Source: Candidatus Omnitrophota bacterium (GTDB taxonomy: Bacteria > Omnitrophota > Gorgyraeia > Duberdicusellales > 4484-171). From it: 64,000 bases of DNA. The notes under the pieces were generated by a model. That model saw nothing but the letters and a program-made list of their open reading frames with translations. It did no database searches and was not told the origin of the DNA. Shown in pieces: positions 9 through 20,237 of the stretch. The stretch covers positions 1 to 64,000 of the forward strand of contig JAIPGM010000002.1 of the NCBI GenBank assembly GCA_021735655.1, given 5' to 3'. Position numbers and translations under genes: made by a program. Every line of letters begins with the position of its first letter. Within the stretch, counting starts at the first letter, position 1.

Positions 9-2180
9 GTGGCAGATATAACAAATAACATGAGTTTGCGTAAGACCGGCATAAAGGTGGTTGGAGATATGCCCTGGGGATCGCATCTATGCCAGTTTTA
101 CCATACTAAAAGAGATTTGCTTGAAATACTCTTACCTTATTTTAAGGCCGGATTAAAGAATAACGAATTTTGTATGTGGGTGACTTCCGAGCCTCTAGGC
201 ACTAAAGAGGCAAAAGGCGCACTTAAGAAAGAGGTAAAAAACCTGGATAGGCTGATTAAAAAGGGGCAGATAGAGATACTGGATTATAGCCAGTGGTACA
301 CAAAGGGCGGCAGGTTCAATGCCGATAGAGTATTAGCCGGCTGGGTAGAGAAAGAGCAGCAAGCCTTAAAAAAAGGGTTCTCTGGCCTGCGTCTTACCGG
401 AAATACCTTCTGGCTGGAAAAGGCAGACTGGGAGAATTTTACCGAGTATGAAGCTAAGGTCAACAATACTATTGGCGGCCGCCGGATGCTGGCTATCTGT
501 ACTTATTCTCTGGATAGATGCAGCGCATCCCAGGTCATAGACGTTGTCAATAATCATCAGTTTGCCCTGATAAAACGCAAGGGCAGGTGGACTTCCGTTG
601 AAAGCTCATCGTACAGAACGGCAATAAATAATTTAGAAGAGATGAACCGTAGATATCAATTGCTTATTGACAATATACGTTTACATATCGCCGTGATAGA
701 CAAAACTGGGAAATTTACCGTGTGGAACAAATATTCGGAAGATTTATTCGGATATACAAAAAGTGAGGCCATTGGGAAGCTTAAGCCAGGGGACATACAT
801 ATTTCCCGTACGGATGCCGCAAGGGTTATCCGCGGCGCGAAAGAAAAAGGTATTTTTGATGATGAAGTTAAGTTAAGGCGCAAAAATGGCTCGCTTGTAG
901 ATGTGCATTTGGTTGTGGTGCCTAATAAAGATCACAAGGGTAATGTAATAAACTACCATGGATTTGGCGAGAACATCACCGAACGTAAGCATGCTGAAAG
1001 ATTTCTACGTCAATCACACCACGGGCTTGAAAAACGCGTTCAAGAGCGCACTCGAGAGCTAAAACAGCTAAACAAGGCTTTGGAAGCGGCAAAGGATAAT
1101 CTTAATAGAGCCCAACAAGTGGCACATATTGGAAGCTGGTATCTCGATATAGCGGATAATGCCTTAGCCTGGTCTGATGAAACCTATCACATATTTGGGT
1201 TAAATATAGGGTCACCGCTTGATTACGCGAAGTTTCTTGAGATCGTTCATCCGGAAGACAGGGAGTATGTTAATATAAGTTGGCAGAACGCCCTACGTCA
1301 AGGGTTCTATGATATAGAGCATCGTATAGTGGTGGCAGGGAGAATAAAATGGGTCAGAGAAAGCGCCCAAGTAGAATTTGATAAGAGAGGTAAGGCTATT
1401 AGGGGCATAGGCACGGTACAGGACATTACTGAACAGAAAGAGCATGAAAAGAATACCCGTAAGCTCCAGCAGGAATTAACTCACGTCTCACGGGTTACGA
1501 CGATGGGAGAACTTACCGCGGCCTTAGCACACGAACTTAACCAACCCCTCATGGCCATTATGAGCAACGCTCAGGCAGCACAGAGATTCCTGGCTAAGAG
1601 CAATCCGGATATAAATGAAATCAAAGAAATACTTTCTGATATTGTCAAAGACGATAAGCGGGCAAGTGATGTTATCAATAAGCTCAGAGCATTAATAAGA
1701 AAATCCGATATCGAGTTTACAATATTAAATATTAATGATGTTGTCAATGAAGTAGTCTCTCTTGTACACAGTGATATAGTTATAAGGAGTATAACCTTAA
1801 ATACAGAACTCAGTGACAAAAATCTTTTTGTGAACGGGGACCGGATACAGTTGCAGCAGGTTATTTTAAATCTTATTCTCAACAGTTTTGAGGCAACGAA
1901 AGATGTTGATTCCAAGAGGGTTCGTATTCGCACGGCAAAAGAGAATGATGAGTCGATTGTCGTTAGTTTTGAGGATGCGGGAACCGGAATTGATGAAGAA
2001 AACCTGAGTCGTATCTTTGAACCATTTTTCACGACTAAGAAAGAAGGCATGGGAATGGGGCTGGCGATTAATAAAGTGATTATTGAATCTCATGGCGGCA
2101 CCTTGTGGGCAGAGAATAATCCCGATAAAGGAGCGACGTTTTATTTTACTTTGCCCATAAGTAAGGAGTGTTCTAAATGA
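9..2180 (+). CDS. Sensor histidine kinase. N-terminal ~200 aa are a non-membrane sensory domain, possibly MEDS-like (GSHLCQFYH). It is followed by two PAS domains, HisKA and HATPase. The 5' end may lie upstream of the window.
   Basis: PAS-like stretches (FTVWNKYSEDLFGYTKSEAIG; IGSWYLDIADNALAWSDETYHIFGL). H-box TTMGELTAALAHELNQPL. ATPase G-boxes DAGTGIDEENLSRIFEPFFTTK and GMGMGLAI. The ORF opens with GTG at 9 with no in-frame stop upstream. Confidence 0.85.
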   Translation: MADITNNMSLRKTGIKVVGDMPWGSHLCQFYHTKRDLLEILLPYFKAGLKNNEFCMWVTSEPLGTKEAKGALKKEVKNLDRLIKKGQIEILDYSQWYTKGGRFNADRVLAGWVEKEQQALKKGFSGLRLTGNTFWLEKADWENFTEYEAKVNNTIGGRRMLAICTYSLDRCSASQVIDVVNNHQFALIKRKGRWTSVESSSYRTAINNLEEMNRRYQLLIDNIRLHIAVIDKTGKFTVWNKYSEDLFGYTKSEAIGKLKPGDIHISRTDAARVIRGAKEKGIFDDEVKLRRKNGSLVDVHLVVVPNKDHKGNVINYHGFGENITERKHAERFLRQSHHGLEKRVQERTRELKQLNKALEAAKDNLNRAQQVAHIGSWYLDIADNALAWSDETYHIFGLNIGSPLDYAKFLEIVHPEDREYVNISWQNALRQGFYDIEHRIVVAGRIKWVRESAQVEFDKRGKAIRGIGTVQDITEQKEHEKNTRKLQQELTHVSRVTTMGELTAALAHELNQPLMAIMSNAQAAQRFLAKSNPDINEIKEILSDIVKDDKRASDVINKLRALIRKSDIEFTILNINDVVNEVVSLVHSDIVIRSITLNTELSDKNLFVNGDRIQLQQVILNLILNSFEATKDVDSKRVRIRTAKENDESIVVSFEDAGTGIDEENLSRIFEPFFTTKKEGMGMGLAINKVIIESHGGTLWAENNPDKGATFYFTLPISKECSK

Positions 2181-2817: not shown

Positions 2818-2862
2818 TTGGACTAAGGTCCAATTTACAGCATTTCTTCACTCTGATATCAT
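2818..2862 (+). promoter_or_regulatory. Perfect 16-bp palindrome TTGGACTAAGGTCCAA abutting a sigma70-like promoter (TTTACA-17-TATCAT). A second copy lies at 13712-13756.
   Basis: Read directly: ttggactaaggtccaa tttaca gcatttcttcactctga tatcat. Nearly identical composite at 13712-13756 (ttggaccaaggtccaa tttaca N17 taatat). Confidence 0.55.
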
Positions 2863-2870
2863 CACTACTG

Positions 2871-3254
2871 ATGATCAAGATTAAACCAAAAATCTACATA
2901 GTTGACGATGATGAGTCCATTCGGCGAGCCCTGAGCCGTCTCATGAAATCTACCGGCTATGAGGCGGAAACGTTTGATTCGGCCCAGCTATTTTTGGACT
3001 CTGTTCCTCCCGATACTCAAGGTATCTTGATTTTGGATATTCGCATGCCGGATATAGACGGTTTTGAACTTCAAAGAAGATTAAACGTTTCGCGTTCTAA
3101 GTTGAGGATTATTTTTATTACCGCACACGCTCAGGCAGGAGACCGTGAACGTGCGATGAAAGCTGGCGCGAAAGGTTTTTTGCAGAAACCATTTAACGAA
3201 ACCTCGCTCTTAGATTTGATAAATTCTATATCCATTGAGAAGGATAAAAGATAG
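2871..3254 (+). CDS. Single-domain response regulator (CheY-like receiver)
   Basis: KIYIVDDDESIRRAL, ILILDIRMPDIDGFEL, IIFITAH, KPF. No output domain. Confidence 0.85.
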   Translation: MIKIKPKIYIVDDDESIRRALSRLMKSTGYEAETFDSAQLFLDSVPPDTQGILILDIRMPDIDGFELQRRLNVSRSKLRIIFITAHAQAGDRERAMKAGAKGFLQKPFNETSLLDLINSISIEKDKR

Positions 3255-3262
3255 GAGGGGGC

Positions 3263-3679
3263 ATGGAATCTAAAATACTGATTATGGATGAAGATGAAGA
3301 ATTTTTAAAATGGGTTGAAAAAATATTAGCTTTAGCGGGTTATAACACTTTTGCATCTAGCAAAGAAGCCTTTGTAAACGGTAATTTTTTTGGAATAAAA
3401 TTTGATACTGTGCTGGTGAAGTTCGATGAATTTGAAAATAAGGAATATCATTTGGTTGATAAATTACGCCAGATGTCGAACAGAATTATCCCGATCATAG
3501 AAAAAAAATTGTTTTCCAGAAATGCGATTTTAAAACTATTTGAAACACTGGGGATTAAAAAATATCTTTTAAAGCCTTTTAATCCCTTGGATGTAATTGC
3601 CGCAATTGAGATGATTCCAGAAGTAGAATATCCGGAAAATGCAGTAGAAACCATAGCTGTAGAAAAGGGAGGTGGTTAA
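3263..3679 (+). CDS. Atypical receiver-domain-like protein
   Basis: ILIMDEDEEF, VLVKFDEF and LLKPFNPLDV resemble REC topology with a divergent acidic pocket. Confidence 0.45.
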   Translation: MESKILIMDEDEEFLKWVEKILALAGYNTFASSKEAFVNGNFFGIKFDTVLVKFDEFENKEYHLVDKLRQMSNRIIPIIEKKLFSRNAILKLFETLGIKKYLLKPFNPLDVIAAIEMIPEVEYPENAVETIAVEKGGG

Positions 3680-3680
3680 A

Positions 3681-3821
3681 ATGGGGTGCAATAGCTGCGA
3701 GCCAAAAAAGGATAATAAAGCAATATATGTATGTACAGCATGTGGCAAAGAGGAGATAAGGGAAGTTAAAGATGGCGAAGTGGTAAAGAGCTGCTGCGGA
3801 CAGCCGATGAAGAAAAAATAA
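3681..3821 (+). CDS. Desulforedoxin-like small iron protein (CxxC...CC), 46 aa
   Basis: Not in the ORF track because it is under 60 aa. Translation MGCNSCEPKKDNKAIYVCTACGKEEIREVKDGEVVKSCCGQPMKKK carries the desulforedoxin C-x2-C / C-C motif. A GGAGG RBS is 6 nt upstream. It sits directly 5' of the SOR gene. Confidence 0.55.
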   Translation: MGCNSCEPKKDNKAIYVCTACGKEEIREVKDGEVVKSCCGQPMKKK

Positions 3822-3855
3822 TAGTGAAAAGCTATATTACAGGAGGTGGTAAGCG

Positions 3856-4239
3856 ATGGAAAAGACATGGACATGCCAGGAGGATATTTTGTGCGGGGTT
3901 AATGAGCCAAAGGATAAAGCTAATCCTACAGACCTTGAGAAGAAACATATTCCTATAATAGAAGCACCGGACAAGGTTAAAAAGGATGAACTTTTTGAGA
4001 TTAAAATTGAGATCGGAAAGTTATTAGCCCACCCTAACGAACCGGCTCATTTTATAGAGTGGATCGAACTTTATTGTGGGCACACATTCTTAGGGAGAGC
4101 GTCTTTAAGCGGCGGTGCAAGCTATCCAACAGTGACTTTTCAGGTGAAACTAAGTCATGCTCACGGGCCGCTGAAAGCCTGGGGAAAATGTAATATACAT
4201 GGTTTGTGGGAAGGCCTGAAAACAATAACTGTAGAATAG
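3856..4239 (+). CDS. sor: Superoxide reductase (neelaredoxin-type, single-domain)
   Basis: Conserved SOR motifs EKKHIP, HPNEPAHFIEWIEL and CNIHGLWEG (His4-Cys iron site). Confidence 0.85.
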   Translation: MEKTWTCQEDILCGVNEPKDKANPTDLEKKHIPIIEAPDKVKKDELFEIKIEIGKLLAHPNEPAHFIEWIELYCGHTFLGRASLSGGASYPTVTFQVKLSHAHGPLKAWGKCNIHGLWEGLKTITVE

Positions 4240-4250
4240 GAGGTATCATA

Positions 4251-4439
4251 ATGAAAGCGATCGTAAATCAGGAAACATGTACAGGTTGTACTTTATGCGC
4301 TCAAGCCTGTCCGGATATCTTTGAAATGGATGGTGAAAAGGCAAAAGTTCTTGTTGACGTTGTAGCGAAAGATAAAGAAGAATGCAGTAAGAAGGCAGCC
4401 GATGAATGTCCGGTTACGGCCATATCTATAGAAGAATAA
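4251..4439 (+). CDS. Small single-cluster ferredoxin
   Basis: CTGCTLCAQACP ... CP cluster motif, 62 aa. GGAGG RBS before the ATG at 4251. The track ORF 4206 is an N-terminal over-extension. Confidence 0.75.
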   Translation: MKAIVNQETCTGCTLCAQACPDIFEMDGEKAKVLVDVVAKDKEECSKKAADECPVTAISIEE

Positions 4440-4455
4440 TGAAAGGAGGCGAGAG

Positions 4456-4881
4456 ATGGCGAAAATAACGAAAGAGAAACTGATTGAGCTTCTTAATAAG
4501 GACTTGGGTTTAGAGTATACCGCGTGTGTGCAGTATACCCAGCATCAAGGGGTCCTAAAAGGCGCGATGTATCAGAACATGCAGAAAGAGCTGGTTATCC
4601 ACGCCCAAGAAGAGCTCGCGCACGCGACAACGATTGCGGCTCAAATAGACTATTTGGGAGGCTTTCCGACCGTTGATATGCCGCTGCCTAAAACCTCTAA
4701 AGAAAACGAAACCATGCTGAAACAGGATCTAGAAGGGGAAAACGACGCTATTGCAAGGTATATAGTGAGGATAAAACAGGCTGAAGAACTGAATCTTTAT
4801 CACTTAGCCCAGCAGTTAAGAAATATCCTGGCTGTTGAGCAGGAACACGCTATGGATTTAGAGCAGGCCCTGGGTAAATAA
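4456..4881 (+). CDS. Ferritin-like diiron protein (Dps/rubrerythrin superfamily)
   Basis: Two E-x-x-H motifs (EELAH; EQEH) about 90 aa apart in a 141-aa helical protein. Confidence 0.55.
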   Translation: MAKITKEKLIELLNKDLGLEYTACVQYTQHQGVLKGAMYQNMQKELVIHAQEELAHATTIAAQIDYLGGFPTVDMPLPKTSKENETMLKQDLEGENDAIARYIVRIKQAEELNLYHLAQQLRNILAVEQEHAMDLEQALGK

Positions 4882-4883
4882 AA

Positions 4884-5096
4884 ATGGTTGTTTTGAAAAA
4901 AAAGAGAGCTAGACAAAAGGTGTTTCTTTATGGCCAGAACCTCAAGCCGGAAGATATTCTTATTTATCTACCAACTGCCTTTAGGCAGAAATTGACCAAA
5001 AGGCAAGCTAACTATCTTAAGCAGGCTTTTTTTAAAACGGTTCTAGCCTACCAAAAGAAAGAAGAGCAGGATTATTTAAATAAAATGCTGGTTTAG
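4884..5096 (+). CDS. Hypothetical small basic protein
   Basis: 70-aa ORF filling the gap between the ferritin-like gene and korA. No recognisable motif. Confidence 0.25.
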   Translation: MVVLKKKRARQKVFLYGQNLKPEDILIYLPTAFRQKLTKRQANYLKQAFFKTVLAYQKKEEQDYLNKMLV

Positions 5097-5104
5097 GTGA
5101 GAAG

Positions 5105-6769
5105 ATGCAAGAGTTATCTATATTGATCGGTGGCAAGGCCGGTTTTGGCATAGACCGTTCGGGTATGGTTTTAGGCCGGCTTTTAAACAGGCTGGGGTAT
5201 CGCATTTATATATACCGCGATTATCCTTCACTTATCCGTGGAGGGCACACCTTTTCTGTGATACGTGCCTCAAAAAACAGGATAGCTGCTTACGCTGACA
5301 AGGTGGATTTTGTTTTAGCTTTAAATAAGGAGACACTCGATTTACATAAAGATAGGCTAAAAAAAGATTGCATGTGTATTTATGATTCTGAACAAACAGA
5401 TGCAATGTCCGGTCTTTGTTGCCTGGGGCTACCATTGAGTAAGTTCCTTAAAATAGAAAAAGCGCCCGAGTTGATGCGTAATACTTGTATGCTTGGCGCA
5501 CTGACAAAAGCTATCGGCCTAGACTTTGAAATTTTAGAAGATGTCCTGAAAAAAGAGTTTTCTCAGAATGCCGATCTCAATATAAAAGTTGCCAGAAGGG
5601 GCTTTGAAGAAGCTAAAGAACTTATTAAGATAGATCCTTTGAATAGGGAAAGTTTGCCGTTACTTACTGGGAATCAGGCCATTGCCTTGGGATTGGTCAA
5701 AGGAGGCCTAAGGGCCTATGTTTCTTATCCGATGACTCCCAGTTCTCCGATATTACATTATCTGGCGAATGTGGCGGATGATTTTAACTTGGATGTGGTT
5801 CATCCGGAAAGCGAAATAAGCGTTATACTTATGGCGTTAGGTTACGCGTATGCCGGTAAGAAAGCGGCAGTAGGAACATCGGGCGGCGGTTTCTGCCTTA
5901 TGACCGAAGGCTTAAGTCTGAGCGGTATGGCTGAATTACCCGTTGTAATAGTCCTTGGCCAGCGGCCGGGCCCGTCAACGGGTCTGCCTACCTACTCCTC
6001 GCAGGGAGATTTACATTTTGCCTTGAGCGCCGGCCATGGTGAATTTACGCGTTTTGTTGTCGCGCCCGGTGACGCCGAAGAATCATATTACTGGTCGGCG
6101 ATGTCCATGAATATCAGTTGGAAATATCAGATCCCGGCTATAATTCTTACTGACAAAGAGTTAGGGGAAAGTACATCAAATTTCGATATATCGTTAATCG
6201 GAAATGTATCTGAAGAAGAAATAGCTATGCGGGATGGAAAATTGCCTTATAAAAGATATGCACTTACAGATAACGGCATTTCACCTTTAGCCTTCCCCCC
6301 GGTTAAGAATGAAATGATCAAAGTAAACAGCTATGAGCATGACGAATTTGGTATAACCACAGAAGTACCGGAAGAGACCATAAAGATGCAGGAAAAACGA
6401 TTGCGTAAAGAAAAATTTTTAGCAGAGGAACTTGAGGGGGTCAAGGCGGTAAATGTATATAATGGCAAGAGAGATGACATCGCACTTCTTTGTTGGGGTT
6501 CTAACAAGGGCGTCGGTGTTGAAATTGGAGAAAAGTTAGGAATAAAAGTCATTCAGCCGGTTGTGCTTAATCCTTTTCCAATAAAACAATTTCAGCAGGC
6601 TCTATCAGGAGTAAAAAAGCTTATTTCAGTAGAAAGCAACGCAACCGGCCAGCTTGCGAGACTCCTTAATAATTATGGTATTAGCGTTGATGAGAAAATT
6701 CTGAAATATGACGGCAGGCCATTTGGCATTGAAAGATTAGAAGAGAAGGTAAAAGAGGTGATAGCATGA
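5105..6769 (+). CDS. korA: 2-oxoacid:ferredoxin oxidoreductase, fused gamma-alpha subunit
   Basis: N-terminal gamma-like domain (GGKAGFGIDRSGMVLGRLL ... SLIRGGHTFSVIRAS) followed by an alpha domain (NQAIALGLVKGG ... YPMTPSS). Confidence 0.8.
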   Translation: MQELSILIGGKAGFGIDRSGMVLGRLLNRLGYRIYIYRDYPSLIRGGHTFSVIRASKNRIAAYADKVDFVLALNKETLDLHKDRLKKDCMCIYDSEQTDAMSGLCCLGLPLSKFLKIEKAPELMRNTCMLGALTKAIGLDFEILEDVLKKEFSQNADLNIKVARRGFEEAKELIKIDPLNRESLPLLTGNQAIALGLVKGGLRAYVSYPMTPSSPILHYLANVADDFNLDVVHPESEISVILMALGYAYAGKKAAVGTSGGGFCLMTEGLSLSGMAELPVVIVLGQRPGPSTGLPTYSSQGDLHFALSAGHGEFTRFVVAPGDAEESYYWSAMSMNISWKYQIPAIILTDKELGESTSNFDISLIGNVSEEEIAMRDGKLPYKRYALTDNGISPLAFPPVKNEMIKVNSYEHDEFGITTEVPEETIKMQEKRLRKEKFLAEELEGVKAVNVYNGKRDDIALLCWGSNKGVGVEIGEKLGIKVIQPVVLNPFPIKQFQQALSGVKKLISVESNATGQLARLLNNYGISVDEKILKYDGRPFGIERLEEKVKEVIA

Positions 6770-7617
6770 CTTCCCAGAACTTAGAAACTAACGCTAAAAA
6801 CACATGGTGCCCGGGCTGCGGTAATTTCGCTATTTTAAATTCCATAAAAGCGGTCTTAAAAAGTATCCGTGAAGAAGGAACGTCTTTAGAGAATGTGGTA
6901 TTGGTCTCCGGGATCGGTTGTCATGCTAAAATAGTTGACTATATAAACGCGAACAGTTTCTATTCTATTCACGGAAGAGCCACACCAGCAGCCGAAGGAA
7001 TTAAACTCGCGAATCCAAATCTTAAAGTTATAGGTTTTGCCGGTGACGGTGACGCTTATGGCGAAGGATTGGAACATCTGATATTCGCCGCTAAGCGGAA
7101 TATCGATATTACTATGATAATACATGATAATCGTGTATACGGGCTTACAACTGGCCAGTATACCCCTACATCTCCGCTTGGTTTTAAAGGCCGTTCGACT
7201 CCCGGGGGAAGTAAGGAACGCCCGATTAACCCTCTTGAACTTATGCTGGCCAGCGGCGCGACTTTTCTTGCCAGAGGTTTTTCACATGGAATAGAACAGC
7301 TCAAGAAAATATTTAAGGAAGCGATAAACCATAAGGGCTTTGCTTTGGTAGATGTACTTCAAGTTTGCGTTACCTTCTATAACATGTATGAGTACTACGA
7401 TAAACGAGTGTATGAACTAAAAGATCATGATGCAGGAGATTATGCCGAGGCGCTTAATAAAATAAAGGAATGGAATTATCACGATGATTCGAAGATAGCG
7501 CTTGGTGTATTATATAAAAAAGAAAGTCCGACTTTTGAAGAGGGGCTTTCATCATCCGGAAAAAGCGAAATAGACGTTGATTCAAACATAAAAAGCATAC
7601 TGGCTAAAACTATTTAA
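6766..7617 (+). CDS. korB: 2-oxoacid:ferredoxin oxidoreductase beta subunit (TPP-binding)
   Basis: WCPGCGNF plus GIGCH ... [12 protein letters not shown]-binding motif. Translationally coupled to korA (4-nt overlap). Confidence 0.85.
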
Positions 7618-7633: not shown

Positions 7634-8059
7634 ATGAGAGATCATGTTTATAAAGTTGTTGAGCTTGTCGGGTCTTCAAAAGCCACCATAGAAGATGCGG
7701 TTAAAAACGCTCTTTCCAAGTCGTCGGAATCTATCAGAAATTCACGATGGTTTGAGGTTAATCAAATAAGGGGGGAAATAGAAGACGGCGAAGTATCGTA
7801 TTGGCAGGTTGGGTTAAAGCTGGGGTTTACAGTCGAAGGGAGCAGCCGGAAAGAAGAGGTACCTGTCGAAACAAGTAAAAAAGCGGCAAAAACAGGGAAA
7901 TACCAATGCAAGGTTTGCAGCTATATCTATGATCCCGAAAAAGGTGACCCGGATAACGGCATAAAAGCGGGGACCTCTTTTAAAGATTTACCCGATGACT
8001 GGAAATGCCCGGAATGCGGTGTAAACAAGGATCAATTTGAAGAAATGAAGGGAGAGTAA
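7634..8059 (+). CDS. Dodecin - rubredoxin fusion protein
   Basis: N-terminal ~70 aa match the dodecin fold sequence ([12 protein letters not shown] ... [11 protein letters not shown] ... [13 protein letters not shown]). C-terminal ~50 aa are a rubredoxin ([14 protein letters not shown] ... WKCPECG). Confidence 0.75.
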
Positions 8060-8060
8060 T

Positions 8061-8915
8061 ATGGATAGAAGAATTACCTTGAAGTCAAAAACACTGTTTT
8101 TGGCAGGCAGGAGAGTCAAAGAAGGAGACTCGGCGTCACAATTTTATGCAGTTGATAGCGAGCTTAAGGAAGTTAAACTAACTGACTACAAAGATTCTAT
8201 AAAAATCATCACCTCTTTTCTTTCTCTGGATACACCTACTTGTAATTTGCAAGTTAAGGAATTTAACAAAAGGGCTAGCAAGTTGGCAGAAGATATTGTT
8301 GTTATCGGCATCAGCCAGGATTTACCTTTCGCCCAAAAGCGCTTTTGTGAGGCGAATAAAATCGAGAAGGTAATAACTCTTTCTGATTACAAAACCAACT
8401 CTTTTGGCATTAATTACGGCCTTTTGATTAAAGAACTGCGCCTTCTGGCCCGTGCGGTTATTATTGTAGATAAAAACAATGTCATTCGTTATGTTTCGAT
8501 TGTTCAAGAGGCAAGTGATGAGCCGGATTACCAGTCAGCGCTAAAGGCACTAAAAGATGTGATCGAAAAACCATTTCTTAAGGGATCCCAAGAGAGGCCT
8601 TCTCATTGTCTTCCCTGTGAAGCCGGTACCCCACCGCTTAAAGAGGGCCGCATAGAGCAGTTAATGGCTACTGTTGAGGGCTGGGAACTTATCGAAGGCA
8701 AGAAAATAAAAAAGACTTTTAAATTCAAAGATTTTATTGAGGCCAAATATTTTTTGGATATTATTAGCGTCATTGCCGAAGAGCAGGGCCATCATCCTAA
8801 CATCACGATTATTTATAATAAAGTAACGATTACGCTTACCACTCACGCTATCGGCGGGCTTAGCGATAATGATTTTATTATGGCTCAGATCATAGATGAA
8901 ATAGGGGGGGCCTGA
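8061..8915 (+). CDS. Thiol peroxidase (Tpx-like peroxiredoxin) fused to pterin-4a-carbinolamine dehydratase
   Basis: Tpx-like region with peroxidatic Cys context (SLDTPTCNLQ) and resolving Cys (KRFCEA). C-terminal PCD/DCoH motif EEQGHHPNITIIYNKVTITLTTH. Confidence 0.7.
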   Translation: MDRRITLKSKTLFLAGRRVKEGDSASQFYAVDSELKEVKLTDYKDSIKIITSFLSLDTPTCNLQVKEFNKRASKLAEDIVVIGISQDLPFAQKRFCEANKIEKVITLSDYKTNSFGINYGLLIKELRLLARAVIIVDKNNVIRYVSIVQEASDEPDYQSALKALKDVIEKPFLKGSQERPSHCLPCEAGTPPLKEGRIEQLMATVEGWELIEGKKIKKTFKFKDFIEAKYFLDIISVIAEEQGHHPNITIIYNKVTITLTTHAIGGLSDNDFIMAQIIDEIGGA

Positions 8916-10201
8916 TGAAAAGAGTCATAGCGATATATCGTTGGGGACTCATATTGATAACCGGATTTGTTTTATTATTTTTGCCGAAACTTGCCCAAGC
9001 CGAGATACACGCTGAAACTATAGAGTATAAAGACGGCGAGGTTATTTTGGAAGGGTATCTTGCTTATGATGACTCAATAAAAGAAAAACGTCCCGGGGTT
9101 TTAGTCGTGCATGAGTGGACAGGCATAAACGATTATATAAAACAACGTGTTAATCAATTGGCAGAAGAAGGTTATATAGCTTTTGCGGCTGATATTTATG
9201 GTAAAAGCATCAGACCGCAAAATAAGGAAGAAGCGGCTAAGCAGGCGGGCATTTACCGTGCCGACCGTAAACTCATGCGCAGAAGGGTACAGGCGGGTTT
9301 GGCCTGCCTTAAAAAAAATCCGATCACCGACCCTTCGCGTATTGCCGCGATAGGTTATTGTTTCGGCGGTGGCGTGGTCTTGGAGCTTGCCCGAAGCGGA
9401 GCTGATGTCGAGGGAGTGGTAAGCTTTCATGGCAACCTGGATACTCCTAACCCGGAAGACGCCGGAATGATAAAAGCGAAAGTGCTGGTTCTTCATGGTG
9501 CCGATGATCCCCATGTTCCAATGAGACAGGTAAAAGATTTTGAGAGGGAAATGGACCGGGCAAATGTGGATTGGCGCATGGTAAGTTACAAAGGCGCTGT
9601 CCATAGTTTTACGAATCCGGCGTCCGGAAACGATCCTTCCACGGGCGCGGCTTACAACAAAGAAGCGGATATGAATTCATGGAAAGAAATGATTGCCTTC
9701 TTTAATAAAATATTTCACGATTATAATTGGCCTTTAGAGGCTATGGCAAATATTACCGATACTAGTGGTAAAGAAGTAGGGAAGGTGCTGTTTAGGGAAA
9801 ACGAAGGCCGCGGAGTAACCATAGATTTAAAGCTACATTCATTTTTACCGGGCAGGCACGCTTTTCATATACATGAATTTCCTGTTTGTGATGCGCCGGA
9901 CTTTAAATCAGCAGGAGGGCATTTTAATCCTTATGGAAAACAGCATGGGTTTCTGAACGAAAAAGGCCACCATGCCGGGGATTTGCCAAATATCATTGTA
10001 GAGGAAAATGGTAATTGCCAGATGTCTTTCACTACGACACAGATAACTTTAAGAAAAGATAAGGAAAATTCTATATTAAGAAAGTTTGGGACATCTCTGG
10101 TGATTCATGAGCTGCCGGATGATTATTTCACCGATCCGGCCGGAGGCGGCGGCAAGAGGCTTGCCTGCGGAACAATAAAAGAAGTGGAGGTAAAAAGGTG
10201 A
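8915..10201 (+). CDS. Secreted dienelactone hydrolase - Cu/Zn superoxide dismutase fusion
   Basis: Signal peptide. DLH-family core (VLVVHEWTGIN ... GYCFGGG ... LVLHGADD). C-terminal SodC motifs (HAFHIHEFPVCD ... GGHFNPYGKQHG ... HAGDLPNI ... LVIHELPDD ... RLACGTI). Confidence 0.75.
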   Translation: MKRVIAIYRWGLILITGFVLLFLPKLAQAEIHAETIEYKDGEVILEGYLAYDDSIKEKRPGVLVVHEWTGINDYIKQRVNQLAEEGYIAFAADIYGKSIRPQNKEEAAKQAGIYRADRKLMRRRVQAGLACLKKNPITDPSRIAAIGYCFGGGVVLELARSGADVEGVVSFHGNLDTPNPEDAGMIKAKVLVLHGADDPHVPMRQVKDFEREMDRANVDWRMVSYKGAVHSFTNPASGNDPSTGAAYNKEADMNSWKEMIAFFNKIFHDYNWPLEAMANITDTSGKEVGKVLFRENEGRGVTIDLKLHSFLPGRHAFHIHEFPVCDAPDFKSAGGHFNPYGKQHGFLNEKGHHAGDLPNIIVEENGNCQMSFTTTQITLRKDKENSILRKFGTSLVIHELPDDYFTDPAGGGGKRLACGTIKEVEVKR

Positions 10202-10713
10202 AGATAGCAGTATTAGTAGAGGATCATTATCAGGTTTTGGAGGTTTGGTATCCATATTTACGCCTTAAGGAAGAAGGTATAGAAACGGTTTTCGTCGGAC
10301 CGGGACGGAAAAAAGAATACGGTAGCAAGGAAGGCTATCCTGCCCCCGAAGAGACATCGGTAGAAACAGCTAGTGTGGATGATTTTGACGGGGTGATTGT
10401 ACCCGGCGGTTACGCTCCTGACTTGTTGCGAAGGTCAAAGAAGATAGTCGATTTTGTGAAAAATATAAATAAACAAAAGAAACTTGTTGCCGCCATATGC
10501 CATGCCGGTTGGGTCTTGGTTTCCGCCGGCATATTGAAGGGAAAGAAGGCGACCTGTTTTTCCGCCATAAAAGACGACGTCGTCAATGCCGGCGCGGAAT
10601 TTATCGACAAGGCGGTCGTTGTTGATGGCAATATAGTAACATCCCGCACTCCGTATGATCTTGGGCCGTTTTGCCGAGAGATCATAAAATTTCTAAAGAG
10701 TAAGGGACGTTAA
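10198..10713 (+). CDS. DJ-1/PfpI family protein
   Basis: AAICHAGWVL nucleophile-elbow motif. 171 aa. Confidence 0.8.
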   Translation: MKIAVLVEDHYQVLEVWYPYLRLKEEGIETVFVGPGRKKEYGSKEGYPAPEETSVETASVDDFDGVIVPGGYAPDLLRRSKKIVDFVKNINKQKKLVAAICHAGWVLVSAGILKGKKATCFSAIKDDVVNAGAEFIDKAVVVDGNIVTSRTPYDLGPFCREIIKFLKSKGR

Positions 10714-10747
10714 AAACAAATTTGTAGTTTAGCGGAGGAGGTAGATC

Positions 10748-11497
10748 ATGGATAAAGCCGATAGATTAGCCGGCCTTTTAAAGCGGCTCAATACCGGGGA
10801 AAATCCGGAAAGCGTGAAGAAGGAGGCCAAAGAATTCTTGGCGGCCCTTGACCCGAAAGACCTTTCATTGGCAGAGCAGAAGTTGATTGAGGCCGGGCTT
10901 TCGTATGAAGACTTACGTAACCTCTGTTGTGTCCACATGGAGGTACTTAAGGGCCAGCTGGAGAATATGAAGATAAAATTAAGCCCGGGGCATGTGATCC
11001 ATACAATGGTTGCCGAGCACGATATGATTTTGGGGTTTTTAGACCAACTTGAGAAGGTGAATAACAACATTCAGAAAATGGACCGATTCAACAGTGACAG
11101 GGAAGAATTTAAAGAATTAAAGCATATTGCCGAGCATCTTGTCGGTTCCGAACCGCATCACAAGCGTGAAGAGGATGTCGTATTCCCTGAGATGGAAAAG
11201 AAAGGGGTCTCGGCGCCGCAGAAGATAATGAGGATGGAGCATGAAGTACTGCGCGCCCGCAAGAAAGACCTTCTTGGTTTGGTGTCGAAGGCGCAGGTGA
11301 TGGATTTTAACGAATTCAAAAGTGAACTCGCGGCAACAGCGGGTTATATAATGTTTACTCTGCGTGAGCATATTTTCAAGGAAAACAATATTCTTTACCC
11401 CACGGCCATTGAAATCATTGATGAACAAGAAAGCTGGGATAGAATGAAGAAAGAGTGCGATACGATAGGGTACTGCTGCTTTACTCCGGAGCGGTGA
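10748..11497 (+). CDS. Hemerythrin-like (HHE cation-binding) / DUF438 domain protein
   Basis: His/Glu-rich helices (HTMVAEHDMI, HIAEHL, EHEVL, REHIFKEN) typical of a hemerythrin-like four-helix bundle. Confidence 0.55.
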   Translation: MDKADRLAGLLKRLNTGENPESVKKEAKEFLAALDPKDLSLAEQKLIEAGLSYEDLRNLCCVHMEVLKGQLENMKIKLSPGHVIHTMVAEHDMILGFLDQLEKVNNNIQKMDRFNSDREEFKELKHIAEHLVGSEPHHKREEDVVFPEMEKKGVSAPQKIMRMEHEVLRARKKDLLGLVSKAQVMDFNEFKSELAATAGYIMFTLREHIFKENNILYPTAIEIIDEQESWDRMKKECDTIGYCCFTPER

Positions 11498-11690
11498 AGG
11501 CGGCCGGCGTCCGATTCCATCCCTGCCCGCGTGCTAGCCTGAAAATGCGCTCATCATTAAAGGGGCGGATGAAAAAGATTCAGAACACCCCATAAAAGAA
11601 ATGGTACGTTTCGGGGTAGAGGGAATAACTTTTGCCGAGGCTGTCAAAGATTCCTAAGTTGTTGATATCTTAAGGGGGGGGTGAGACGAT

Positions 11691-12629
11691 ATGGCTGATG
11701 ATTACGACGTGATTATCATCGGTGGCGGCCCTGCGGGATTAACCGCAGGTATCTACGCCGCCCGGACCGGATTATATACGCTGGTCATCGACAAGAATAT
11801 TCTTGCCGGTGCATTAGGCTCTACGTCAAGAATAGAAAATTACCCCGGCATTCTTAAACCGTGTTCCGGCCGGACGCTGATCGGTAAACTCCGGCGGCAG
11901 GCTCAAAAGTTTGGGGCTGAGCTTGTGCGAGAGCGCGTGTTACACACCGAACTGGAGGGTCCCGTCAAAAAGGTCGTTTCCGAAGCCCGGGAATACCGCT
12001 CTCGTAGCCTGATTGTCGCCAGCGGGGCCATGGGGAGGAAGGCTTCGGTGGACGGCGAAAAGGAGTTCCTGGGCAAAGGGGTGAGTTACTGCGCGGTATG
12101 TGATGCGCCTTTCTTTCGCGGCAAGAAGGTTGCCCTGGTGGGAGGTATCGAGGAAATAAGTCAGGAGATCGGGGTTATCGCCAAATTCGCCAGTGCGATA
12201 TATATTGTAAGTCTTCAGGCGATAGATAGTCCAGGGAAGAAGACGATCGACTTCGCTGATAACCTTACCGTTTTCACTAACCACCGGTTGAGCAAGATCT
12301 ATGGGGCAAGGGCCGTTGAGGGTGTTGAAATAATCTCGGCCGGGGGCCAGCGAAAACAGATCGCGGTCGATGGGGTATTTATGTATCTGCACGGCAATCG
12401 GCCGCTGGTCGATTTCCTTGGTGATCATTTGAAAACTGGAAGCGATCGCTGTTTGATTGTAAATAGAGAGGATATGTCTACTTCCCTCGAAGGGGTGTTC
12501 GCTGCCGGCGATGTTATATGTACCAGGATCCGCCAGGCTGTGGTCGCGGCTTCAGAGGGGTGCATTGCCGCTCTTTCGGCGGAGAAATATATTATGCAGA
12601 GGCGGTCGCCTCGTGCGCAATGGCACTGA
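11691..12629 (+). CDS. Thioredoxin reductase-like FAD/NAD(P) disulfide oxidoreductase (GC-rich copy)
   Basis: DVIIIGGGPAGLTAGIYAAR, redox CAVCDA, second Rossmann GKKVALVGGIE. Local GC is well above the flanking sequence. Confidence 0.75.
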   Translation: MADDYDVIIIGGGPAGLTAGIYAARTGLYTLVIDKNILAGALGSTSRIENYPGILKPCSGRTLIGKLRRQAQKFGAELVRERVLHTELEGPVKKVVSEAREYRSRSLIVASGAMGRKASVDGEKEFLGKGVSYCAVCDAPFFRGKKVALVGGIEEISQEIGVIAKFASAIYIVSLQAIDSPGKKTIDFADNLTVFTNHRLSKIYGARAVEGVEIISAGGQRKQIAVDGVFMYLHGNRPLVDFLGDHLKTGSDRCLIVNREDMSTSLEGVFAAGDVICTRIRQAVVAASEGCIAALSAEKYIMQRRSPRAQWH

Positions 12630-12901
12630 GCTTGCCGATGAGCATCTGGTCGCGCAAAAGCTGCGGCAGAGGATCGAGGAGGCCGTGGAGCGCTTGCCGC
12701 TCAAATAGCGGGTGACTATCATTCTGCACGGTCCGGAGGGTTTTCTGTTGTCGATGCCGGGGTATCCTTCCTGAACGGCAGGATAAAATTGAACAATTTC
12801 TCTTCAAAAAAACATAAATTTATTGTACCCTTTCGCTTTTTTCGGCATCAAAATATACATAGGGAAGGTGAGTAAAATAGTGGGGCCTAAAAGAATATTA
12901 T

Positions 12902-13402
12902 ATGAAAAATATGAAGGTATTGGGGAATATGGTAAAAGCTGGAGATTTATTAGCGGGGGCGCTTTGCGCGGAAGAAGCCCGGGCTCGCTTGAGTGACTAT
13001 CTTGCCGGAATGATCGGAAACGGAAGAGTTCGAGCGAACTTTAGAGCTTTTTCTAAAGAGGCAATCTCCGCGCAGCAGGAGTTGATCGATTCCCATAAGG
13101 GGTTGTTTCCATGTCCGCGAGAAGGAAACGATTTTTGTAAAGCGTGCCGGGCGAATCCGGAAAGCTTCTCACTCGCCGGAGCCCTGCAGTATGGTGTCGA
13201 ATTAAGCCGGGAGGGGATAGCCTGCTATAAGAGGCTTTCGCGGGGAGCACGCCACACAGACACTAAAAAACGCCTCGGACGGCTTCTCGCGCAGCAGAAG
13301 CGCTACCAAAAGTTTCTAACGAGAGAGCAGCGGTTTGACCGCAGCGAGAATGAAATTTTTAGCTTAGGTTTCTCTACTAAAGAGAGCATACTTGATTCCT
13401 GA
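12902..13402 (+). CDS. Hypothetical protein (Cys-containing, GC-rich)
   Basis: 166-aa ORF in the GC-rich segment. No motif recognised. Confidence 0.35.
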   Translation: MKNMKVLGNMVKAGDLLAGALCAEEARARLSDYLAGMIGNGRVRANFRAFSKEAISAQQELIDSHKGLFPCPREGNDFCKACRANPESFSLAGALQYGVELSREGIACYKRLSRGARHTDTKKRLGRLLAQQKRYQKFLTREQRFDRSENEIFSLGFSTKESILDS

Positions 13403-13711
13403 ACAGCGGCCCTTAAAGAGGCATTCGGGATAAAAAAAGGGGGGGGTGATTACGATGGCCAGACTGAAAAATATCAAGGAAAAGGCTAAGCGGGTAATCG
13501 AAAAAGCAAAAAGTAAAATGAAATGTAAATGTTGAAAGGCCTTGCTGTTAAAGGGAGTGCATTACAAATGAGATGAAAAACAAAAAGGTCAGAAGTGACT
13601 CATCTGCGCAAGATTGCCATTGAATAGCCAGCTAGCATCGTAGCAAGAAAGACTCAAGATCCTCTGCCGACGCTTTAAAAAAAGGGGGTCTTGAGTTTAT
13701 TTTTTCCCTTA

Positions 13712-13756
13712 TTGGACCAAGGTCCAATTTACATCATTTTTTCATTTTGATAATAT
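13712..13756 (+). promoter_or_regulatory. Second copy of the TTGGAC-N4-GTCCAA palindrome + TTTACA-17-TAATAT promoter, upstream of the nrnA ... arsSM operon
   Basis: ttggaccaaggtccaa tttaca tcattttttcattttga taatat. Compare 2818-2862. Confidence 0.55.
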
Positions 13757-13862
13757 CTATGTGTCAATTTAGGGCGGAGCATTCTCCGACAGAAGTTAAC
13801 TTAAAAATAGCCTAAAAATTAGGCAAAAGAGTATGCCGGGTTGCTGGGAAATTAGCTGAAAA

Positions 13863-14816: not shown

Positions 14817-15427
14817 AACGTATACTTATTGTTTTTGCCAAAGAGCCTCAGGAAGGCAGGGTAAAAACCCGGCTGTTGGACTGTTTATCCGCTAGAGAAT
14901 GCCTTAAGCTTTATAAGAAGTTGTTAAAAAATACGGTCAGCTTAGCCAGAAAAGTAAAATGTAGCGGAAGAATTATGGCTTATGATTCTTATAATCAAAG
15001 GGCGCCTTTTCTCGAAAGAATAGCTTCGGATTTTACATTTTATAAACAGGCTGGAAGAGGCCTCGGAGCAAGAATGTTTGATGTTTTTAAAGCGATTCTT
15101 AAAAGTAATACTAAAGCGGTGATTATCGGCTCGGATTCACCGAATCTACCGATAAATTATATAGACCGAGCTTTTGAGAAACTTAGTAAAAACGATCTTG
15201 TCTTAGGCCCCGCCGATGACGGCGGCTATTATCTCATTGGCCTTAAACAGCCATGTAAAAAATTATTCGAAAATATAAAATGGAGCTCTGGTACGGTGTT
15301 CGATAGAACGGTCAAGAAGGCAAAAAAACTAAAGAAGAAGACCACTGTTTTGGATTATTGGTATGACATAGATGAGCCAAAAGATTTAAAATATATTAGA
15401 AAAAAGCCTGAAAGTGTTGATCGATGA
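14813..15427 (+). CDS. DUF2064 (TIGR04282-type) glycosyltransferase-partner protein
   Basis: RILIVFAKEPQEGRVKTRL ... GPADDGGYYLIG. Confidence 0.65.
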   Translation: MKRILIVFAKEPQEGRVKTRLLDCLSARECLKLYKKLLKNTVSLARKVKCSGRIMAYDSYNQRAPFLERIASDFTFYKQAGRGLGARMFDVFKAILKSNTKAVIIGSDSPNLPINYIDRAFEKLSKNDLVLGPADDGGYYLIGLKQPCKKLFENIKWSSGTVFDRTVKKAKKLKKKTTVLDYWYDIDEPKDLKYIRKKPESVDR

Positions 15428-16098: not shown

Positions 16099-16101
16099 GT
16101 T

Positions 16102-17532: not shown

Positions 17533-17533
17533 T

Positions 17534-18205: not shown

Positions 18206-18214
18206 AGGTTTTTC

Positions 18215-20224: not shown

Positions 20225-20237
20225 TAAGATATAACCA

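Follow-up and report, generated by a model that had tools for sequence, protein, structure and literature searches.

Does the 46-codon gene found directly upstream of a superoxide reductase (SOR) gene in a Candidatus Omnitrophota bacterium encode one half of a desulfoferrodoxin (Dfx) that has been separated into two genes, or a free-standing desulforedoxin (Dx) that hands electrons to its neighbour? Both possibilities had been raised by a first-pass annotation of the window, that is, the whole stretch of 64,000 nucleotides analysed here. The answer depends on what the small protein is, to which SOR class its neighbour belongs, and how constantly the two genes travel together.

Results

A genuine and conserved small gene

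The small gene lies in the following surroundings, in the order of the sequence.

2871..3254, + strand: single-domain response-regulator receiver (PF00072, E = 1.8e-29), which probably opens the transcription unit
3263..3679, + strand: degenerate receiver-like protein of 138 aa (PF00072, E = 0.0057, below cutoff)
3668..3672, + strand: GGAGG Shine-Dalgarno sequence of the small gene, read directly from the DNA, 8 nt before the ATG at 3681
3681..3821, + strand: 46-aa six-cysteine Dx-like protein (C3, C6; C18, C21, C38, C39)
3856..4239, + strand: class II (1Fe) superoxide reductase of 127 aa (ligands H31, H59, H65, C112, H115)
4251..4439, + strand: 62-aa single-cluster [4Fe-4S]-type ferredoxin (PF13459 and PF13370, E ~1e-13)
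4456..4881, + strand: 141-aa ferritin-like (bacterioferritin/Dps-type) protein (PF00210, E = 1.4e-19; PDB matches to bacterioferritins and 2qqy)
5105..6769 (alpha) and 6766..7617 (beta), + strand: 2-oxoacid:ferredoxin oxidoreductase (POR, POR_N, TPP_enzyme_C, PFO_beta_C)
7634..8059, + strand: dodecin-rubredoxin fusion (PF07311, E = 2.4e-24; PF00301, E = 2.2e-25)

The small gene extends from the ATG at 3681 to the TAA at 3819-3821, and its product reads MGCNSCEPKKDNKAIYVCTACGKEEIREVKDGEVVKSCCGQPMKKK (46 aa). Only 1 nt separates this ATG from the stop codon of the upstream gene (3677-3679), and the GGAGG/GGTG context found here recurs at two other loci (L003 and L005). An alternative GTG start at 3672, which would yield a 49-aa product, was rejected: it falls within the Shine-Dalgarno sequence, and all homologues begin with MGC or MxC. 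The position and content that the first-pass annotation had given for this ORF, with 46 residues and a CxxC...CC motif, are correct; the cysteines of this motif are C18, C21, C38 and C39. Its reservation that the ORF might lack conservation or a ribosome-binding site can be set aside, since the site is strong and the homologues (44–46 aa, 58–100% identity, mostly from Omnitrophota) form 52 clusters. The four cysteines of the motif are invariant across 30 aligned homologues, and G40 is likewise invariant. Judging from its substitution pattern, the gene is under strong purifying selection, with a dN/dS of 0.05–0.13 (pN of 0.05–0.14; pS of 0.5–0.98, synonymous sites being near saturation).

A length of only 46 aa and the bare NCBI label 'hypothetical protein' might suggest a chance ORF or an untranslated spacer. 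This reading is virtually out of the question, since on sequence grounds it is already refuted by the conservation pattern described above, invariant cysteines and saturated synonymous sites included, to which the strong ribosome-binding site adds. The small gene is a genuine gene. A profile search with its family among 1.84 billion representatives returned 23 matches at E <= 0.001, including about 12 true members when clusters are counted at 50% identity, and did not reach canonical Dx at that database size. So few matches mark the family as small, with Omnitrophota at its centre, but are no guide to its nature.

A divergent member of the desulforedoxin family

The invariant core of the small protein, C18-x2-C21-x16-C38-C39-G-x-x-M, is a divergent Dx motif. 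The canonical cysteine pattern of Dx is CX2CX15CC (PMC3116461); the two cysteine pairs are thus spaced by x16 in the small protein and by x9 in a related short variant, versus x15 in the canonical form. The CCG-x-x-M signature is common to the small protein and to canonical Dx and Dfx from related loci. Aligned by hhalign to canonical Dx and the N-terminal domain of Dfx, the small-protein family reached a probability of 96.4% (E = 1.1e-9, 38 columns) with all four cysteines in register, and a canonical-Dx HMM run on the six-frame translation of the 64-kb window picked out the small ORF alone (E = 6.6e-7). The profile search that the first-pass annotation had proposed for the peptide gave a less clear-cut answer: PF06397, its sole Pfam match, reached 20.2 bits (E = 4.7e-4), under the gathering cutoff of 23, and the Rubredoxin family (PF00301) did not match, the second cysteine pair being an adjacent CC. 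A precomputed PF06397 label exists for one of the 52 clusters (P0017).

At the structural level, Dfx and Dx were the two best matches of a single-sequence PDB search, neither being significant alone. The AlphaFold2 model of the small protein has a pLDDT of 77, which falls to only 56 for residues 1-10. Compared by Foldseek with 1dxg_A, it superposes 35 of 36 residues with an rmsd of 2.3 Å (probability 0.94, TMt 0.65, E = 0.3); 1dxg ranks top by probability and second by E-value, followed by 1dfx and 2ji2. MCM zinc-binding subdomains obtained Foldseek scores similar to those of Dx, and no match was significant alone. A PDB profile search with the family alignment was led by C2H2 zinc fingers and ribosomal zinc ribbons, which share the YxCxxCGK knuckle, and listed Dfx only at E = 0.63; being dominated by that knuckle, it was unhelpful as a test of Dx membership and was discarded for this purpose.

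The small protein also differs from canonical Dx in its charge, as it is lysine-rich and basic (pI 8.6, with a KKK tail) whereas canonical Dx is acidic (pI 4.25). Its additional N-terminal cysteine pair is kept in most members with a variable spacing (CxxC, CxC or CC), and is absent or incomplete in some (P0007, P0009 and P0043). Taken together, the sequence comparisons identify the small protein as a Dx homologue that is divergent, basic and endowed with six cysteines. The first-pass assignment to Dx therefore holds as homology, supported by hhalign and the canonical-Dx HMM, but has to be qualified by its divergence and its score below the PF06397 threshold. By its motif, the protein most likely binds one iron via C18, C21, C38 and C39, with zinc as the alternative metal.

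The neighbour is a class II superoxide reductase with an N-terminal stub

The SOR gene is preceded by its own GGAGG (3842-3846) and its product has, by sequence, the make-up of a complete class II (1Fe) enzyme with all ligands. It passes the cutoffs of PF01880 (E = 4.5e-29; 101.3 bits versus 22.2) and TIGR00332 (76.1 bits versus 61.9) and fails that of TIGR00320 dfx_rbo (40.8 bits versus 146.9). In the PDB sequence search, 1Fe-SORs were found at E-values of 3e-21 to 1e-10, versus 2e-7 to 7e-5 for the class III SOR of T. pallidum and Dfx chains; in the fold search, they were found at 1e-11 to 4e-7, versus 8e-7 to 6e-6 for Dfx (pLDDT of the AlphaFold2 model, 91.9). Both lists are headed by the 1Fe-SORs of Ignicoccus hospitalis, T. 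maritima, P. horikoshii, A. fulgidus and N. equitans, with the neelaredoxin of I. hospitalis as the nearest solved structure (E = 2.8e-21 by sequence and 1.2e-11 by fold). Identity amounts to 53–87% with unfused class II relatives and to 30–39% with fused Dfx from the same scan. Each of the five ligands is retained by 119-120 of 120 homologues, and the E-K-H loop of the present SOR has its lysine (E28-K29-K30-H31). These results, together with the NCBI name 'class II SORL domain-containing protein', agree with the neelaredoxin-type SOR announced by the first-pass annotation.

The same annotation had described this SOR as lacking the N-terminal domain. It has indeed no Dx domain, but it is not a bare catalytic domain either, as it starts with a stub of 27 residues that contains two invariant cysteines. 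Conservation of C7 and C13 of this stub, and of H101 and H103, is on a par with that of the catalytic ligands; the HxH motif is also found in 222 of 231 SOR sequences with CX5C, H103 being replaced by a cysteine in two. C13-G14 falls on C30-G31 of Dfx (the CCG of centre I), and the next 17 residues fall on the Dfx linker; this alignment points to a shared ancestry of the junction region. The SOR is devoid of the first CxxC knuckle of Dfx and carries a four-residue HAHG insertion that is absent from Dfx. This subfamily was found in MAGs of Omnitrophota, Aminicenantes, Elusimicrobia and Deltaproteobacteria, and when the MCEDDIFCG-type SOR served as the seed of a homology search, the matches came from Aminicenantes and not from Methanosarcina.

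The subfamily may conceivably carry an undescribed second metal site, formed by C7/C13 of the stub and H101/H103 of the inserted loop at the place of Dfx centre I, although we consider this rather improbable. A variant in which the N-terminal CxxC of the small protein would complete the CX5C half-site of the SOR was also considered and is disfavoured, because the CX5C/HxH motif persists beside a canonical Dx without such a pair (L037 and L038) and at loci without any Dx-like neighbour.

An operon-like neighbourhood

As stated by the first-pass annotation, the small gene is directly upstream of the SOR gene and a small ferredoxin gene follows at 4251, the latter here confirmed by its Pfam matches. 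The small gene and the SOR gene share one orientation, and the 34 nt between them contain no terminator-like site. The gaps around the small gene, the SOR, the ferredoxin and the ferritin-like gene are 1, 34, 11 and 16 nt, the ferredoxin gene starting 11 nt after the SOR, and a GGAGG precedes each gene. No terminator-like site was detected by scanning the + strand from 2900 to 5100. The sequence that most resembles a promoter here (2834-2862; 10/12, extended -10) is a consensus match only; since the scan counts were no higher than in shuffled sequence, the scan served only to note the absence of an internal terminator-like site. The layout is operon-like, and the small gene is presumably co-transcribed with the SOR gene.

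The calculated pI is 8.6 for the small protein, 4.5 for the ferredoxin and 6.2 for the SOR, which is in keeping with a carrier placed between the other two. Further downstream, the 2-oxoacid:ferredoxin oxidoreductase is a likely source of reduced ferredoxin with a putative tie to the SOR, and the dodecin-rubredoxin fusion could donate electrons to the SOR instead of, or together with, the small protein.

A recurrent but facultative association

An SOR accompanies the small gene at 4 of 14 convincing genome loci (L003, L005, L015 and L010, the last with a degraded copy interrupted by in-frame stops). Three kinds of Dx-like genes are found upstream of SOR genes: the Omnitrophota-type small gene (the window, L003, L005 and L044), the shorter six-cysteine variant at a distance of 16–91 nt (L019, L020, L024 and L029), and a canonical free Dx that precedes members of the same SOR subfamily by 24–26 nt (L037 and L038). 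Viewed from the SOR side, a Dx-like gene lies upstream in only about 7 of 37 related loci (a canonical free Dx in two), and about 30 are without one.

Oxidative-stress or iron genes are present in about half of the small-gene contexts, including KatG with MsrAB, catalase, rubrerythrin with canonical Dx, a rubrerythrin-type rubredoxin-domain protein and a DtxR-like (DtxR/FeoA-type) repressor. The other half is unrelated to redox, with YchF-YajQ, a DEAD helicase, a SpoU methylase or glycosyltransferases as neighbours. At one locus (L104), the small gene adjoins a canonical Dx gene, so that the two are not simply interchangeable. Another locus (L002) displays the same operon skeleton with a rubredoxin-domain protein in place of the SOR and ferredoxin.

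The surrounding genes recur to various extents. The small gene directly follows receiver genes in at least six loci; an orthologue of the 2871..3254 receiver immediately precedes it in L002, L005, L010, L015 and L044, and orthologues of the 138-aa receiver-like protein are found in L003, L019, L020, L022 and L024. The ferredoxin gene is kept after the SOR in L003, L005, L010, L015, L025 and L027. The most constant neighbour of the SOR is the ferritin-like gene, whose product is 56–95% identical where it adjoins the SOR (L005, L019, L020, L022-L024, L029 and L032-L035). The 2-oxoacid:ferredoxin oxidoreductase is kept downstream in L002 and L015, and L002 also has an orthologue of the dodecin-rubredoxin fusion. 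The association between the small gene and the SOR is recurrent but facultative.

Discussion

With the Dx-like gene first and the SOR gene 34 nt behind it on the same strand, the pair follows the succession of domains in class I 2Fe-SOR, and a comparable unfused arrangement recurs where a canonical Dx gene directly precedes an SOR of the same subfamily (L037 and L038). The resemblance extends to the SOR stub, which aligns in register with the linker of Dfx and the final part of its Dx domain. Even so, it is very unlikely that the two genes encode the separated domains of one enzyme, whether after fission or before fusion. Sequence, fold and NCBIfam all place the SOR in class II, and the fused Dfx genes of the same scan are its distant relatives, as the identities given above indicate. 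Besides, the small protein possesses the whole four-cysteine Dx motif and the SOR retains its own junction remnant, so that they are not complementary halves. They are not one polypeptide, as a stop codon, the spacer and a separate ribosome-binding site lie between them; the small gene often occurs without any SOR, and the L002 skeleton contains a rubredoxin-domain protein instead. With a class II SOR, non-complementary fragments and a facultative pairing, the first-pass proposal of a Dfx in two genes or an evolutionary intermediate is not upheld.

Could the small protein be a structural zinc ribbon rather than a redox protein? It would then act, for example, as a nucleic-acid- or ribosome-associated factor or as a partner of the single-domain response regulators, placed beside the SOR for regulatory reasons or by coincidence. 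Its basic, lysine-rich nature with a KKK tail, the zinc fingers and ribbons that score best in the PDB profile search, the proximity of DEAD-box helicase, YchF-YajQ and SpoU methylase genes in several lineages, and the position directly behind receiver genes would all fit. However, the second knuckle of zinc ribbons is CxxC, whereas in the small protein two adjacent, invariant cysteines precede G-x-x-M, which is the signature of Dx. The hhalign score, a top-probability fold match that is Dx and no zinc ribbon, and the oxidative-stress or iron genes in half of the contexts also make this role unlikely. A function in metal handling or as a sacrificial thiol, i.e. an Fe/Zn chaperone or buffer or a switch sensing reactive oxygen species that combines the N-terminal cysteine pair with the Dx-like site, is suggested by the density of six cysteines per 46 residues and by neighbours such as ferritin-like proteins and the DtxR/FeoA-type iron repressor. 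The variable spacing of the widely kept N-terminal pair would better fit a flexible metal-binding tail than a rigid fold. Nevertheless, this pair is missing or incomplete in some members and modelled with low confidence, and the invariant part of the protein is the Dx core, so that we give such a function little credence.

The small protein and the SOR are most simply read as an electron donor and its acceptor. We estimate at about 55% the probability that the small protein is a divergent, basic Dx-type carrier in a class II SOR module, being a general-purpose part in Omnitrophota and not a dedicated SOR subunit. Under this reading, its gene would be co-transcribed with those of the SOR, the ferredoxin and the ferritin-like protein, behind two-component regulator genes, and the Fe(Cys)4 centre of the protein would be rubredoxin-like, but distorted by the adjacent cysteines as is typical of Dx. 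The 2-oxoacid:ferredoxin oxidoreductase would provide electrons to the acidic ferredoxin, which would pass them to the basic Dx-like carrier, and the latter would deliver single electrons to the SOR, whose Fe(His)4Cys site would convert superoxide into H2O2. The ferritin-like protein and peroxidases encoded nearby may then handle H2O2 and iron, the small protein contributing more generally to oxidative-stress/iron modules of Omnitrophota. SOR centre II has a potential near +200 to +250 mV. Dx-type centres lie near 0 mV (PMC7482061). The iron binding, the redox function and the direction of electron flow are those predicted from homology and gene context.

Several observations sit less easily with a carrier. 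The PF06397 score is below threshold and no single PDB or Foldseek match is significant; the cysteine spacing of x16, or x9 in the short variant, departs from x15, and the basic, lysine-rich composition is unlike that of acidic Dx. About half of the contexts are non-redox and most SORs of the subfamily are without a Dx-like neighbour. Finally, the true donor of the SOR could be the rubredoxin domain whose gene lies 3.4 kb downstream.

The precedent for pairing a Dx-type protein with a class II SOR is given by Dx and neelaredoxin of D. gigas, whose dsr and nlr genes are not known to be adjacent. This class II SOR is reportedly reduced faster by Dx than by rubredoxin, and Dx is said to have been proposed as its physiological electron donor. 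In both organisms, a Dx-type protein coexists with a 1Fe-SOR, and D. gigas Dx (PDB 1DXG/1CFW) is similarly small and free-standing with CxxC...CC-G-x-x-M. The protein described here differs from it in length (46 versus 36 aa), spacing (x16 versus 15) and pI (8.6 versus 4.25), as well as in its extra N-terminal cysteine pair, its score below the Pfam threshold and a gene directly upstream of the SOR. With class I Dfx (1DFX, 2JI1; TIGR00320), the present pair shares the module order and the catalytic ligand set, but it consists of two polypeptides with separate ribosome-binding sites and its SOR domain is of class II. Methanoferrodoxin of Methanosarcina mazei is a class IV SOR with a [4Fe-4S] cluster. 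Compared by description only, it resembles the present SOR in being of one-domain size with extra ligand-type residues for a possible second centre, here with a ferredoxin gene following, and differs from it in that the extra residues here are two cysteines and two histidines per monomer, not four cysteines. The clustering of some sor genes with genes of electron donors, e.g. rubredoxin in D. vulgaris, is known and non-universal (PMC3116461). As in the rbo-rub pair of D. vulgaris, a small carrier of Fe(Cys)4 type, here predicted, is encoded beside sor, but it is of the Dx type with an adjacent CC, whereas rubredoxin has CxxCG/CPxCG knuckles; the rubredoxin domain of the window is fused to dodecin.

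To our knowledge, desulforedoxin as a free protein was hitherto known mainly as a curiosity of Desulfovibrio. Current understanding of superoxide detoxification is not overturned by our results, which also serve as a warning that genes of this kind are missed by genome annotation. If the putative second site of the SOR were redox-active, as mononuclear iron or a Cys2His2 Fe-S cluster, the CX5C/HxH motif would matter more, since it would add a new class of two-centre enzymes to SOR classification, with the Dx-like mini-protein and the ferredoxin as upstream donors of this site.

To conclude, an unannotated and divergent Dx-like family with six cysteines, basic, below the Pfam threshold and labelled 'hypothetical', recurs in oxygen-stress gene clusters of Omnitrophota, and Dx-like genes occur in at least three forms beside one 1Fe-SOR subfamily. 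The partnership of Dx with class II SOR proposed for D. gigas thus appears in operon layouts elsewhere, and the small protein offers a concrete candidate for the electron donor of SOR in uncultivable organisms.

Gene context of the small ORF

The 46-aa ORF, which runs from ATG 3681 to TAA 3821 and encodes MGCNSCEPKKDNKAIYVCTACGKEEIREVKDGEVVKSCCGQPMKKK, and the superoxide reductase (SOR) gene behind it sit, in a Candidatus Omnitrophica MAG, within a string of genes all on the same strand. Both products are 100% identical to NCBI proteins of a 322,746-bp contig, and run SRR12088349 holds an identical 6.4-kb contig.

Gene string in the window
9-2180, +, PAS histidine kinase
2177-2806, +, LuxR-type response regulator
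2871-3254, +, single-domain receiver
3263-3679, +, degenerate receiver-like protein, 138 aa (Response_reg E 0.0057, far under cutoff)
3681-3821, +, 46-aa ORF
3856-4239, +, SOR (PF01880, TIGR00332)
4251-4439, +, ferredoxin
4456-4881, +, ferritin-like protein
5105-7617, +, 2-oxoacid:ferredoxin oxidoreductase, alpha and beta subunits
7634-8059, +, dodecin-rubredoxin fusion, 141 aa, rubredoxin domain C-terminal (orthologue in related locus L002)
8061-8915, +, thiol peroxidase (Redoxin/AhpC-TSA-type) fused to pterin-4a-carbinolamine dehydratase
8915-10201, +, dienelactone hydrolase fused to Cu/Zn SOD, N-terminal hydrophobic leader

The ORF is a real gene, since its homologues form 52 clusters (44-46 aa in nearly all, identity 58-100%) and it has invariant cysteines (C18, C21, C38 and C39, together with G40) and a low pairwise dN/dS (0.05-0.13, with synonymous sites near saturation). 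The stop of the upstream gene lies 1 nt ahead of its ATG, and a Shine-Dalgarno GGAGG (3668-3672) 8 nt 5' of it. The first-pass annotation, which had proposed a desulforedoxin-motif gene here and named conservation in relatives and a ribosome-binding site as its test, is thus borne out on both points. The gaps after the small gene are 34, 11 and 16 nt in order, with GGAGG before each gene; a consensus-match scan found no terminator-like site on the + strand at 2900-5100, and the best promoter-like match (2834-2862, by consensus only) is ahead of the receiver gene. The gene at 3263-3679 is conserved in several loci, where it separates the small gene from the true receiver gene; its product may be a receiver that has degenerated and taken on a new role.

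Oxidative-stress genes extend on to about 21.6 kb. The fusions at 8061-8915 and 8915-10201 are unusual, and only 5 kb separates the SOD and SOR genes in a presumed anaerobe. The island at 10198-21583 holds DJ-1/PfpI, DUF438-hemerythrin, a thioredoxin-reductase-like flavoprotein (CAVC motif), a class I pyridine nucleotide-disulfide oxidoreductase, MsrA-MsrB and a 669-aa radical-SAM/DUF3641-methyltransferase fusion.

A variant desulforedoxin and a class II SOR

In the profile search suggested at first pass, the sole Pfam match of the small protein is PF06397, the N-terminal or desulforedoxin (Dx) domain of desulfoferrodoxin (Dfx); at E 4.7e-4, its 20.2 bits fall short of the cutoff (23). Dx homology is upheld by profile-profile comparison of its family with an alignment, drawn from related loci, of free-standing canonical Dx and N-terminal domains of Dfx (probability 96.4%, E 1.1e-9), in which the four cysteines and G-x-x-M are all in register. 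An HMM of the same Dx alignment, run against the six-frame translation of the window, matched the 46-aa ORF alone (E 6.6e-7). A single-sequence PDB search returned Dfx first and Dx second, not significantly. For the AF2 model (pLDDT 77; 82-85 over residues 11-46), the highest-probability Foldseek match is D. gigas Dx (prob 0.94, TMt 0.65, rmsd 2.3 A over 35/36 residues) with Dfx structures next, no E-value being significant at such length.

Compared with the canonical Dx motif of SORGOdb, CX2CX15CC (PMC3116461), the small protein has 16 rather than 15 residues between the Cys pairs and carries an additional N-terminal pair, usually present and variable in spacing; it is also basic and lysine-rich (pI 8.6), unlike D. 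gigas Dx (pI 4.25). Its family is a small one: among 1.84 billion representatives, about a dozen clusters (at 50% identity) are true members. We conclude that the protein is a Dx variant so far without annotation, and thus a new form of a known kind of protein, and that its pairing with the SOR is probably a case of a known kind of partnership between a small Fe-Cys4 carrier and a SOR.

The SOR itself is a class II enzyme, since its nearest solved proteins are 1Fe-SORs (Ignicoccus, Thermotoga, Pyrococcus, Archaeoglobus and Nanoarchaeum, by sequence and fold) and it passes the cutoff of TIGR00332 and fails that of TIGR00320 (Dfx). PF01880 is likewise above its cutoff (E 4.5e-29), the sequence has all five conserved ligands (H31, H59, H65, C112 and H115) as well as the conserved E-K-K-H loop, and Dfx structures score orders of magnitude more weakly than 1Fe-SORs.

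Conservation of the pairing

Scanning genomes at species level with the small protein turned up 15 loci, nearly all in Omnitrophota; 14 are convincing. The SOR follows the small gene in L003 and L005, and in L015 a ferritin-like gene intervenes. In L010 (5001-5370) the SOR region is degraded by in-frame stops, on a low-coverage MAG contig (1.3x); this is a pseudogene or else an error of assembly. L002 keeps the operon skeleton, with a rubrerythrin-type rubredoxin-domain protein in place of SOR and ferredoxin. Elsewhere the small gene adjoins KatG and MsrAB (L007), catalase (L014), a DtxR/FeoA-type repressor (L011), pirin (L106), or YchF-YajQ, a DEAD-box helicase, SpoU methylase and glycosyltransferases. 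In L104 (2399-3391) the Omnitrophota-type small gene is in a row with genes for rubrerythrin and for a canonical Dx of 41 aa (PF06397); since the two Dx-like proteins coexist there, they are probably not redundant. In L014, the small protein downstream of catalase is fused to a coiled-coil-like C-terminal extension of about 90 residues without Pfam match (5001-5405), and a canonical Dx lies at 2339-2467.

A metagenome scan from the SOR side gave about 37 class II relatives whose contigs reach far enough upstream, and seven of these have a Dx-like gene there: in L044 it is the Omnitrophota-type small gene, in four loci a shorter variant with six Cys, MTCGHCGTKKKKAVYECGSCGRVSDRQEECCGKPMKKKK, and in two loci canonical Dx.

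Dx-like genes in related loci (positions in each locus)
L019:2306-2461, L020:2830-2985, L024:2713-2910, L029:110-244, short six-Cys variant upstream of SOR of the same subfamily, gap 16-91 nt
L037:827-958 (SOR 982-1347), L038:767-919 (SOR 945-1310), canonical free-standing Dx upstream of class II SOR, gap 24-26 nt
L002:1636-1800, L005:6213-6371, L015:7375-7602, L023:3864-4049, third Dx-like family, in sister operons, behind the ferritin-like gene

The short variant (MTCGHCG...YECGSCG-x9-CCGKPMKKKK) has 9 residues between Cys pairs instead of 15-16. The metagenome contigs L037 and L038 bear a true unfused Dx-SOR gene pair; in L037 a rubrerythrin gene lies ahead of it and a flavodoxin-like gene after it. 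The ferritin-like protein is the more constant neighbour of the SOR, and the more distant matches of the metagenome scan (30-39% identity) are ordinary fused Dfx. The third mini-protein family, MAKINLKKGSRLVCIPCGREVIVDCCGASAKTIWCCGKPM..., with CxxC, internal CC and terminal CCGKPM, is absent from the window. L065 (about 2850-3312) encodes a SOR domain whose N-terminus is joined directly to a rubredoxin-like domain (CKVCG...CPVCG), a rubredoxin-SOR fusion unlike the Dx-SOR fusion of Dfx.

A probable recruited partnership

The first-pass annotation was right to see a Dx-like gene and a neelaredoxin-type (class II) SOR, and an electron-donor pair, one of the readings it offered, is the most economical one; its reading of them as a split Dfx is not supported, since the SOR belongs to the class II clade and the small protein amounts to a complete Dx module. 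Because, in addition, the SOR retains a junction-like segment of its own and the small gene also occurs in genomes independently of the SOR, the two most likely represent a recruited partnership rather than two halves of one gene. Their association is far above chance adjacency in frequency, yet facultative, as is that of genes for SOR electron donors such as rubredoxin (SORGOdb, PMC3116461).

The most economical model casts the small protein as a one-electron carrier of the Dx type. Its electrons would come from the co-encoded ferredoxin and 2-oxoacid:ferredoxin oxidoreductase and pass one at a time to the SOR, while the ferritin-like protein and nearby peroxidases would deal with H2O2 and iron. 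Ferredoxins have potentials far below those of Dx-type centres, and SOR centre II lies well above them. With Dx-type centres near 0 mV (PMC7482061), such a path would be downhill. A basic carrier (pI 8.6) between an acidic ferredoxin (4.5) and a mildly acidic SOR (6.2) weakly suggests electrostatic docking. Auchere et al. (JBIC 2006) reportedly found D. gigas Dx a better donor than rubredoxin for the class II SOR of D. gigas.

A candidate second metal site in the SOR

The 27-residue N-terminal stub of the SOR, modelled by AF2 with fair confidence (pLDDT 88 at residues 11-20), carries W-T-C7-x-E-D-I-L-C13-G-V-N, a CX5C-G motif. In profile-profile alignment with fused Dfx, which starts by placing L12-C13-G14 on C29-C30-G31 (the CCG of centre I), the SOR also has an inserted loop, H101-A-H103-G (S-H-A-H-G), absent from Dfx. 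These four residues are as conserved as the catalytic ligands: among 120 SOR homologues, C7 is kept in 119, C13 and H101 in all, and H103 in 117, with two H-to-C replacements. The Aminicenantes branch, about 50% identical, still has both cysteines. HxH occurs in 222/231 CX5C sequences versus 0/22 Dfx, and SOR relatives without the Cys pair also lack it. This co-occurrence could reflect clade inheritance. However, a Cys2His2 pattern with ligand-conservative substitution has, at the sequence level, the appearance of a metal site, and C7, C13, H101 and H103 may form an undescribed one in this SOR subfamily. This candidate second site is the part of the finding most worth an experiment.
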